A stretch of DNA of 43,322 nt from Escherichia phage PSK2: the sequence record PP541514.1. One strand, written 5' to 3'. Below, piece after piece: positions 39,747 through 41,160 of this stretch; position 1 is the stretch's first letter; each line of letters opens with the position of its first letter. The translations under genes were made by a program, and so were the position numbers. The notes beneath the pieces are model-generated. The model was given only the letters and a program-made list of their open reading frames with translations, did no database searches and was not told the DNA's origin.

Positions 39747-39929
39747 ATGGCAATTGCTAAAGCCACCCAAGCACAGCGGCAGGAACTGTTGCGCCAATTA
39801 AACATTCTAGGCAAGGACCTCTACGCAATCCTTACTCAGCCCCAGGATGTAACTCAGACAGGTGCAGCATTCGATGCTAAGATTGCTGCCTTAGAAACAG
39901 CTATTACCGCTGTGAAAACGGCCAGCTAG
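39747..39929 (+). CDS. Hypothetical protein (60 aa)
   Basis: ATG with AAGGAGA ribosome binding site. Confidence 0.4.
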   Translation: MAIAKATQAQRQELLRQLNILGKDLYAILTQPQDVTQTGAAFDAKIAALETAITAVKTAS

Positions 39930-40324
39930 TGCGTAAAATGGTTGCTGGGTTACTGCTCGTAGTTACTCTGACTGGTTGCTCAGCGACCTCTGCGCTTACC
40001 GGCCTAGTTGGTTCTAAGCCGGAAGTATCTGCACAGGTTGGTGCTGAGAATACTAAACAGATGCTCGGGCTGAATAATAAGGTGGACTCCAGCACCACCA
40101 ACAAAACTGATGTACAGGATTCTAACGTAGGTACACTGGATACTTCTAGCAAGAAGCAAGTGCAGACTATTAGTACTGGCACAATACAAGCAGAGCGCCT
40201 ACAAGTGGTTAACAACGATAGTTACAGCCTTATCCTCGCCGGATTAGCAGGAGCCAGCATTCCTTTGGTCTTCCTAGTGACCATTCTGGTGATTCGTAAG
40301 CTGTTTAGGAAGAAGGGTCAGTAG
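39929..40324 (+). CDS. Unimolecular-spanin-like lipoprotein (N-terminal lipobox signal plus C-terminal transmembrane helix)
   Basis: Signal peptide ending in lipobox LTGC; C-terminal hydrophobic helix LILAGLAGASIPLVFLVTILVI followed by basic RKLFRKKGQ; sits in the lysis cassette. Confidence 0.45.
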   Translation: MRKMVAGLLLVVTLTGCSATSALTGLVGSKPEVSAQVGAENTKQMLGLNNKVDSSTTNKTDVQDSNVGTLDTSSKKQVQTISTGTIQAERLQVVNNDSYSLILAGLAGASIPLVFLVTILVIRKLFRKKGQ

Positions 40325-40325
40325 G

Positions 40326-40577
40326 ATGATTAAGGTAGGGGACATGGTTGGGGCAGACCTCGCTACCCGGGCAGGTGCAGCAGTTACTGGTGCTACGGTA
40401 TCAGGAGGTTGGTTGGCAGAGTTAATGAGCTGGAACTGGAGCACTATCAGCTTCATCACTGCGACTGTATGTGCAGTGCTAACCCTGGCGTGGAATGCGT
40501 ATTACAAGAGACGTACATTCAAGCTCCTAGAGGAGCAGGCGCGTAAGGGGACTATTAAATATGAGTTTAAGGACTAA
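40326..40577 (+). CDS. Holin, pinholin-like
   Basis: 83 aa with two hydrophobic segments (the first Gly/Ala-rich) and a charged C-terminus; directly upstream of, and overlapping, the endolysin gene. Confidence 0.45.
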   Translation: MIKVGDMVGADLATRAGAAVTGATVSGGWLAELMSWNWSTISFITATVCAVLTLAWNAYYKRRTFKLLEEQARKGTIKYEFKD

Positions 40578-41160
40578 GGTTATTGCGGCCCTCACGGGGG
40601 CCACTATGCTCGGCGGCGCTATCACTGGGGTAATCCAGCACAACGAGGGCTTGAGCCTTACCGCCTACAAAGACAGCGCCGGTATCCCGACTATCTGCTA
40701 TGGGGAGACAAAGGGCGTCAAAATGGGCCAGAGAGCCACGCTGAGCGACTGTCAGAAGCAATTGATAGAATCAGCAGGGGTACATGCAAAGGCTCTTGAT
40801 GGCCTTCCTATGCAGCTCTCTGATGTAGCTCTGATAGGGTCTGTGGACTTTATCTATAATGTTGGGGTGTCTGGCTTCAACAATAGTATAGTGAAGCGAC
40901 ATCTCAAAAATCTTGATTATACAGCAGCTGGAAAGGCTGTACTGGACTGGCGCTATATTAGCAAGTACCAGAAGAATTCCCCAGGGATTGGATGGGAGTA
41001 CAAGGGCCATAACCGCTGGACCTTTGATTGCTCCCAGTACGTCAACGGACAGCGCAACAAAGTGTGCTGGGGCCTGTGGGAGCGCAGGCAGTGGCAATCT
41101 AAGGCTGTAGGCAACCGGTTTAAGAACGTGCAGGCAGCTCTATCTGAACTTAAACAATAA
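40561..41160 (+). CDS. SAR endolysin (T4-lysozyme-like muramidase with N-terminal signal-anchor-release domain)
   Basis: Weakly hydrophobic N-terminus VIAALTGATMLGGAITGVI, then catalytic motif EGLSLTAYKDSAGIPTICYGETKG (Glu, Asp, Thr triad pattern). Confidence 0.7.
   Translation: MSLRTKVIAALTGATMLGGAITGVIQHNEGLSLTAYKDSAGIPTICYGETKGVKMGQRATLSDCQKQLIESAGVHAKALDGLPMQLSDVALIGSVDFIYNVGVSGFNNSIVKRHLKNLDYTAAGKAVLDWRYISKYQKNSPGIGWEYKGHNRWTFDCSQYVNGQRNKVCWGLWERRQWQSKAVGNRFKNVQAALSELKQ

Follow-up and report, generated by a model that had tools for sequence, protein, structure and literature searches.

The closest described systems are those of the podophage genus Drulisvirus (formerly Kp34likevirus), for which Eriksson et al. 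(2015; PMC4411677) reported a lysis cassette of u-spanin, holin/pinholin and SAR endolysin genes, arranged in this order, and used it to argue for the creation of the genus, contrasting it with the holin-endolysin-Rz/Rz1 arrangement of phiKMV. The same arrangement has been described for Phimunavirus (PMC6115819) and for the Drulisvirus JKP2 (PMC10194101). Gene 11 of the siphophage T1 is the prototype of the unimolecular spanins (u-spanins; Summer et al. 2007) and complements the lysis defect of lambda RzRz1 (PMC6139136), and the T1 gp11 family listed by Kongari et al. (2018; PMC6139136) includes proteins of KP34, F19, NTUH-K2044-K1-1 and Stevie. According to the same authors, periplasmic Cys residues are absent from every u-spanin, the periplasmic domain of the T1 gp11 family is predicted to consist of one short alpha helix and, after it, at least four beta strands, and almost all of the T1-family u-spanins are housed in pinholin/SAR-endolysin cassettes (PMC6139136).

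The DNA analyzed here, referred to as the window, is the 43,322-nt sequence of Escherichia phage PSK2 (PP541514.1), and all the genes of this genome run on the plus strand. The cassette region matched 249 phage records with 86–88% nucleotide identity (86.6% in the case of F19), nearly all of them from Klebsiella Drulisvirus, while the genomes closest to the right-hand 25 kb were EC22.5-2, Hope, ZH5, and KPV811, with ~91% identity over 86–89% of the length. Judged by these matches, the window is a Drulisvirus genome.

In the ORF list, the three lysis genes are tightly packed on the plus strand (Table 1), with the spanin gene directly 5' of the holin and endolysin genes, exactly where the first-pass annotation had put them. 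The raw sequence showed that the GTG of the spanin ORF shares 1 nt with the TAG stop of the ORF upstream, and 17 nt are common to the end of the holin gene and the start of the endolysin gene. The cassette is preceded by the gene for the terminase large subunit (37505–39361) and then by two small conserved ORFs, 39361–39732 (PHROG 7128) and 39747–39929 (PHROG 7375). It is followed by a gene for a 661-aa depolymerase-type tailspike (41171–43156), which matches Pfam Phage_depo_C. A scan of the cassette for promoters and terminators detected nothing convincing inside it; sigma-70 patterns are irrelevant to late genes, which are read by the phage RNA polymerase. We consider, with a probability of about 0.9, that the three genes make up the lysis cassette, expressed late, of a KP34-like Klebsiella phage of the genus Drulisvirus (Autographiviridae), coding for a u-spanin, a pinholin, and a SAR endolysin.

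Table 1. Predicted features of the lysis cassette (positions are those of the window)
Feature	Position	Strand	Description	Basis
u-spanin gene	39929..40324	+	131 aa, GTG start, stop TAG 40322-40324	ORF list, PHROG 1804, T1 gp11 homology
Lipoprotein signal peptide of the spanin	39929..39979	+	aa 1-17	Regex, hydropathy, Pfam LPAM_1
Periplasmic domain of the spanin	39980..40225	+	aa 18-99	Composition, family alignment
C-terminal TM helix and basic cytoplasmic tail of the spanin	40226..40321	+	Helix aa ~100-122, tail aa 123-131	Hydropathy, AF2 model, alignment
Holin gene	40326..40577	+	83 aa, P21-S-like, basic C-terminal tail	PHROG 20, PF04971, EssD alignment, hydropathy
SAR endolysin gene	40561..41160	+	199 aa, GH24 lysozyme	PF00959, 3hde, hydropathy

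The first-pass annotation had described the product of ORF 39929–40324 as a protein with a lipobox (LTGC), a C-terminal transmembrane helix and a basic tail, and hydropathy, a regular expression for the lipobox ([LVI][ASTVI][GAS]C) and the Pfam model LPAM_1 agree on this description. The N terminus, MRKMVAGLLLVVTLTGC, is composed of a basic n-region (RK), a hydrophobic core, and the lipobox LTGC at aa 14–17, with Cys17 as the acceptor position. A lipoprotein signal was also predicted by LPAM_1, with 21.4 bits (cutoff 20). The residue at position +2 relative to Cys17 is Ser18, i.e., not Asp, and the sequence runs on after Cys17 with SAT. Under the +2 rule of the Lol system, a residue other than Asp at this position leads to sorting of the lipoprotein to the outer membrane. 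A second strong hydrophobic stretch spans aa ~98–127 (KD19 maximum 2.4), followed by the tail RKLFRKKGQ. The periplasmic segment between the two, of ~80 aa, is rich in Ser, Thr, Val, Gln, and Asn, carries the conserved motif AQVGAENTKQ (aa 35–44), and is free of Cys, Cys17 being the only one in the protein.

A single-sequence AF2 model of the spanin, of low confidence (mean pLDDT 57.8, and <50 across most of aa 28–94), contains two membrane helices, a short helix at aa 36–44, and no strands; the best-scoring part is the helix at aa 96–127. The beta-rich periplasmic fold expected for the family was thus not recovered by this model. When the spanin sequence was searched against the PDB, only chance-level matches were returned (E ≥0.26; PsbM and an antifreeze protein), so there is no relative of this u-spanin with a solved structure. 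Membership in the NCBIfam family spanin2_3 was rejected, as the score of 19.9 bits was below the cutoff of 80; this sub-threshold match extends from the signal peptide over the first ~55 residues of the mature protein.

The assignment of the protein as a unimolecular spanin, also made in the first-pass annotation, was borne out by homology. In BLASTP, the protein is 40% identical to Tunavirus T1 gp11 over 126 of 131 aa (E 6e-25), and it matches PHROG 1804 with an E-value of 1e-50. Drulisvirus proteins annotated as "u-spanin" are 93–99% identical to it (SU552A, 93.9%), and the Putnam orthologues of the cassette genes carry the annotations u-spanin, holin, and endolysin. Among the Drexlerviridae, identity is 51% to the "unimolecular spanin" of SU57 and 41% to the protein of Stevie. 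In an alignment of eight sequences (Drulisvirus, Phimunavirus, and four Drexlerviridae proteins), G16, C17, and S18 are invariant near the lipobox, as are A35, Q36, G38, A39, E40, N41, K43, G47, K51, D53, G68, S73, and A88 in the periplasmic domain, and the position of the C-terminal transmembrane domain (TMD) is conserved. A protein is assigned to the T1 gp11 family if it shares 40% identity or more with a member across no less than 40% of the length, and the PSK2 protein lies within this definition, with a Cys-free periplasmic domain as well. By homology, the product of 39929–40324 is thus a member of the T1 gp11 unimolecular spanin family.

The spanin ORF does not owe its existence to chance: tblastn with the PSK2 spanin found matches in 1140 phage records. 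Third codon positions hold 33 of the 44 differences from the Putnam orthologue and 21 of the 24 from that of ZH5, and the codon changes relative to ZH5 are 22 synonymous and one non-synonymous. This concentration of the differences at third positions indicates a coding gene under purifying selection.

The three PSK2 genes and their order are shared with KP34 (gp54–gp56), SU503, SU552A, F19, and NTUH-K2044-K1-1, including the 83-aa holin (PMC4411677), and the cassette has the same position as in other Drulisvirus genomes, flanked by the gene for the large terminase subunit on one side and the terminal depolymerase gene on the other. The first-pass annotation read the arrangement correctly, but it is already known, having been described for the genus in 2015 (PMC4411677). 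The local peculiarities are minor and limited to the two ends of the spanin gene. It starts with GTG, whereas its Drulisvirus relatives start with ATG, and a CAG-to-TAG change places the stop three codons early, so that the last three residues (QDD) are lost and an 8-nt overlap between the spanin and holin genes is removed.

The first-pass annotation had named an Rz/Rz1 pair elsewhere, with this gene dispensable for lysis, as a finding that would count against the spanin reading. The whole window was searched for a spanin pair by a six-frame lipobox scan and by a scan of the plus-strand ORFs for N-terminal TMDs. Among the plus-strand ORFs of all 43 kb, 39929–40324 alone had a lipoprotein signal. 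The other lipobox ORFs, 36176–36310, 25337–25552, and 37561–37743, are on the minus strand, antisense to large genes, and were discarded as chance occurrences. The N-terminal-TMD scan of the plus-strand ORFs did not find an i-spanin-like candidate beside a lipoprotein gene. By these two scans, there is no Rz/Rz1 candidate elsewhere in the window.

The literature searched contained no experiment with the spanin, the holin, or the endolysin of a Drulisvirus, complementation of lambda Rz/Rz1 having been shown for T1 gp11 alone (PMC6139136), and the functions proposed here consequently rest on homology to T1 gp11, S21, and R21. It could accordingly be argued that 39929–40324 codes for an ordinary phage lipoprotein, acting in superinfection exclusion or receptor blocking like Llp or Cor and with no role in lysis, as a lipoprotein signal by itself occurs in exclusion lipoproteins too. 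Such lipoproteins, however, have no C-terminal TMD, and the one found here is strong; the protein is clearly homologous to T1 gp11, a functional replacement of Rz/Rz1; its gene adjoins those for the holin and endolysin in podophage and siphophage lineages alike; and no other spanin candidate was found in the genome. We regard this reading as extremely improbable. Very improbable, too, is that the gene codes for a decaying or dispensable spanin, the outer membrane being disrupted in some other way (shear, or a disruptin-like cationic peptide). The GTG start and the early stop, by which PSK2 departs from both Putnam and ZH5, would fit such decay, and phages lacking a spanin and using alternative outer-membrane disruptors are known (bioRxiv 10.1101/515445). 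Yet GTG is a normal bacterial start codon, and it still shares 1 nt with the stop of the preceding ORF. The early stop costs just the QDD of the cytoplasmic tail, and since the shortened protein ends where the T1-like members of the family end, no functional consequence is expected. Apart from these residues, the protein is 99% identical to its ZH5 counterpart, with the strong excess of synonymous changes given above. For this gene, we therefore retain the reading as a functional u-spanin of the T1 gp11 family.

The second gene codes for a protein that matches the PHROG 20 "holin" family (E 4.7e-17) and, marginally, Pfam PF04971 (Bacteriophage P21 holin S; 26.6 bits, cutoff 26). For comparison, the scores were 28.7 for the orthologue of Momine (Phimunavirus) and 121 for EssD, which is the S21-like holin of prophage DLP12 and served as the control. 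In BLASTP, the holin aligned with EssD from Met7 of the window protein, with 28% identity (E 1e-4) and coverage of both TMDs. No match to NCBIfam was found for it. TMD2 is clear in the hydropathy profile (aa ~38–60, nt 40437–40505), while TMD1 is weakly hydrophobic and rich in Gly, Ala, and Thr (aa ~13–34, nt 40362–40427; KD17 maximum 1.02). The TMD1 of S21 is likewise weakly hydrophobic and Gly/Ala-rich. Taken together, these data indicate that the protein is probably an S21-like class II pinholin, although this is short of proof. Of the two transmembrane segments given in the first-pass annotation, the second is strongly supported, and the first, marginal in hydropathy, is one that we infer. 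The pinholin call itself stood, on the marginal PF04971 match together with the EssD alignment across both TMDs. For Drulisvirus orthologues, TMHMM gave one TMD, and the authors of those papers concluded that they are pinholins from the SAR endolysin partner, despite the one TMD (PMC4411677; PMC10194101). It is likewise solely the partnership with a SAR endolysin that suggests nanometre-scale, depolarising holes from which the endolysin would be excluded.

The third gene codes for a protein with a Pfam PF00959 (Phage_lysozyme) match of 74.1 bits. At its N terminus, R4 and K6 are followed by VIAALTGATMLGGAITGVI at aa 7–25 (nt 40579–40635; KD19 1.84), a stretch in which 15 residues are Gly, Ala, or Thr, as is typical of SAR domains, and the catalytic Glu, E29, sits four residues after it. 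The triad E29/D38/T44 (E-x8-D-x5-T; nt 40645–40692) is invariant in an alignment of seven sequences (Drulisvirus, Phimunavirus, and T1-like enzymes) and aligns with that of R21. The best relatives in the PDB are full-length phage-21 R21 (3hde) and RrrD (4zpu), with E-values of ~4e-10, and the alignment with 3hde starts at residue 2 and spans the N-terminal hydrophobic SAR region. The Drulisvirus and Phimunavirus endolysins differ from the T1-like ones by an extra insertion of ~30 aa, which contains Cys157 and Cys169. The proposal of a SAR endolysin in the first-pass annotation is consistent with the invariant triad and with R21 as the best PDB match from residue 2 onward. The data support a SAR endolysin of the R21-type GH24 class, for which Sec-dependent export, tethering to the membrane, and release dependent on the proton motive force (PMF) are predicted.

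Both of these assignments could be questioned jointly, if the holin made large holes or belonged to class III with a single TMD and the N terminus of the endolysin were cleaved off as a signal peptide or anchored the protein permanently. The single TMD predicted by TMHMM in the orthologues (PMC4411677; PMC10194101), the marginal hydropathy of TMD1, and the Pfam score at the threshold all point in that direction. What speaks for a pinholin is the alignment with S21-like EssD over both TMDs and the resemblance of TMD1 to that of S21 in being weak and Gly/Ala-rich, and what speaks for a SAR domain is the alignment of the endolysin N terminus with the SAR region of R21 (3hde) and its content of Gly, Ala, and Thr. 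We therefore consider the non-pinholin, non-SAR combination unlikely. A broader proposal goes beyond the three genes: the products of 39361–39732 and 39747–39929 may be undescribed lysis regulators (an antiholin or a spanin chaperone), and the whole pinholin/SAR endolysin/u-spanin module may have passed between T1-like siphophages and KP34/PhiM1-like podophages, its gene order being permuted. This proposal takes up the position of the spanin gene at the head of the cassette, where the 1-nt stop/start overlap would couple its translation to the two small ORFs. We hold it to be quite unlikely. A cassette of u-spanin, pinholin, and SAR endolysin remains the reading that we carry forward in the comparisons below.

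The likeness of the PSK2 spanin to T1 gp11 extends over the lipobox, the Cys-free periplasmic domain, the C-terminal TMD, and the motif AQVGAENTKQ, the lipobox being LTGC in the window and LSGC in T1. In T1, too, the partners of the spanin are a small holin and a GH24 endolysin. The two phages differ in that PSK2 is a podovirus with its own RNA polymerase and T1 a siphophage, and the order of the genes is holin, endolysin, u-spanin in T1-like siphophages, whereas the spanin comes first in the window. With homologous spanin and endolysin genes in another order, the podophage cassette is a permuted version of the T1-like one. Between the holin of PSK2 and T1-type holins, the C-terminal half alone could be aligned (E 1e-5), and so, as far as the holin is concerned, co-inheritance of the whole cassette with T1-like phages is not established. 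Holin homology between the T1-like siphophages and the podophage cassette is weak.

[quoted passage not shown] In Momine, the spanin is 45% and the endolysin 61% identical to those of the window, and the ~30-aa insertion of the endolysin is also present. These phages differ from PSK2 in belonging to the subfamily Corkvirinae, in their host, and in a very low nucleotide identity to KP34 (PMC6115819). In phage 21 and DLP12 (EssD/RrrD), the holin aligns with that of PSK2 over both TMDs and the endolysin over the SAR region and the E/D/T triad. However, the spanin of these phages is an embedded two-component one (rzpD/rzoD) instead of a single u-spanin, the PSK2 endolysin has a C-terminal extension or insertion of ~30–60 aa relative to R21/RrrD, and holin identity is low (28%). 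As for phiKMV, it is an Autographiviridae podophage that also has a pinholin and a SAR endolysin (Briers et al. 2011, as cited in PMC4411677), but its Rz/Rz1 genes come after the endolysin gene, in contrast to the single u-spanin before the holin in PSK2 (PMC4411677). The first-pass annotation had presented the u-spanin as a departure from the two-component pair more usual in T7-like phages; this contrast holds for T7 and phiKMV, but within Drulisvirus the u-spanin is the published norm.

The present data show how the genes are arranged, to which families the proteins belong, and which topology signals they carry; the course of lysis can be outlined by analogy with the families concerned. Sec would export the spanin, a lipid would be attached to it at Cys17, and signal peptidase II would remove its signal peptide. 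The acylated N terminus of the spanin would then reach the outer membrane by Lol sorting, as allowed by Ser at +2, while the C-terminal helix would be retained in the inner membrane, each molecule crossing the periplasm through the peptidoglycan mesh. Meanwhile, the S21-like pinholin would build up in the inner membrane, where the endolysin, exported earlier, would be restrained in an inactive state by the SAR helix at its N terminus, which is weakly hydrophobic. Triggering of the pinholin would open small holes and collapse the PMF, after which the endolysin would exit the bilayer, refold, and degrade the murein. With the murein gone, the spanins would be freed to move laterally and to collapse, bringing both membranes together and disrupting the outer one, most probably by fusing it with the inner one. 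Such fusion is how u-spanins are proposed to act in the literature, and it is a model even for T1 gp11 (PMC6139136); physiological or biochemical data on u-spanin function did not exist at the time of the study by Kongari et al. (PMC6139136).

The accurate name for the product of the first gene is "u-spanin, T1 gp11 family," whereas PHROG 1804 and RefSeq use the looser "Rz-like spanin," and many records have either this label or "hypothetical protein." Beyond correct annotation, the significance of the locus is slight, as it represents a textbook pinholin/SAR endolysin/u-spanin system that already serves to characterize Drulisvirus at the genus level. How u-spanins work is nevertheless unproven, and an abundant, well-conserved family of therapeutic Klebsiella phages with such a protein offers a convenient experimental system for it. 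Such phages are also of enzybiotic interest, both for the endolysin and for the adjacent depolymerase.

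The product of the gene at 39929–40324 is carried under the family name "Rz-like spanin" in PHROG 1804 and in RefSeq, and some records label members of this family "RzlA," "tail assembly protein," or "hypothetical protein." Because Rz is an i-spanin, with a topology opposite to that of a u-spanin, the correct label for this product is "u-spanin (T1 gp11 family)" and not "Rz-like spanin." No NCBIfam model captures the protein; the best, spanin2_3, scores 19.9 bits where the cutoff is 80. Both ends of the gene differ from those of its relatives. The start codon (39929–39931) is GTG, whereas it is ATG in the phages Putnam and ZH5 (TAGTG vs. 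TAATG), and at the other end a CAG-to-TAG change (40319–40327 region) makes the protein 3 aa shorter, with loss of QDD. As a consequence of this early stop, the spanin and holin genes are separated by a 1-nt gap, instead of the 8-nt overlap seen in the relatives.

Between the terminase large subunit gene and the spanin gene are two conserved small ORFs, neither of whose products had a match in Pfam, and the second of which overlaps the start of the spanin gene by 1 nt and is thereby coupled to it. In the Phimunavirus phage Momine, too, a pair of hypothetical ORFs occupies this position. The coordinates of these and other features are listed in the table.

Features of the PSK2 window outside the spanin–holin–endolysin genes
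Feature	Position	Strand	Evidence
Conserved small ORF	39361–39732	+	PHROG 7128, E 5e-79
Conserved small ORF	39747–39929	+	PHROG 7375, E 4e-36
Tailspike or capsule depolymerase, 661 aa	41171–43156	+	Pfam Phage_depo_C
Very small hydrophobic ORF	16536–16700	+	KD19 2.3–2.8
Very small hydrophobic ORF	16704–16865	+	KD19 2.3–2.8
Very small hydrophobic ORF	14289–14507	+	KD19 2.3–2.8

Downstream of the spanin, the holin has methionines at positions 1 and 7 (aa 1–7, 40326–40346), the second of which lines up with Met1 of EssD, the S21-like holin of prophage DLP12. This pair could be a dual-start motif of the holin/antiholin type; in ZH5 position 7 is Val, so Met7 is not conserved. The endolysins of Drulisvirus and Phimunavirus differ from the T1-like SAR endolysins and from R21 of phage 21 by an insertion of ~30 aa, found here at 40966–41055 (aa ~136–165), with two cysteines (157 and 169).

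In the early/middle region, several very small plus-strand ORFs (53–72 aa) are almost wholly hydrophobic, and the three listed may encode small membrane proteins. Runs of ten G were observed at both ends of the window (1–10 and 43313–43322), and BLASTn of its first 1500 nt against its last 1500 nt found no direct terminal repeat. Since published Drulisvirus genomes have terminal repeats, the ends of the window seem either to carry a poly-G artefact of sequencing or assembly or to have been trimmed.

The closest database genomes to 18400–43322 are those of Escherichia phages EC22.5-2 and ZH5 and Klebsiella phages Hope and KPV811 (~91% identity, 86%–89% coverage). As this identity is below the species threshold of 95%, PSK2 as a whole, by implication from this region, is probably an undescribed Drulisvirus species. 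The match of the nearest whole-genome relatives ends near 41100, and they lack the tailspike of PSK2, which shares 97% identity with the Klebsiella phage P252 "tail fiber protein"; all its other matches, including tailspikes of jumbo phages and myophages, are below 50% identity. The absence of this P252-like tailspike from those relatives suggests a swapped receptor-binding module, which would set capsule type and host.
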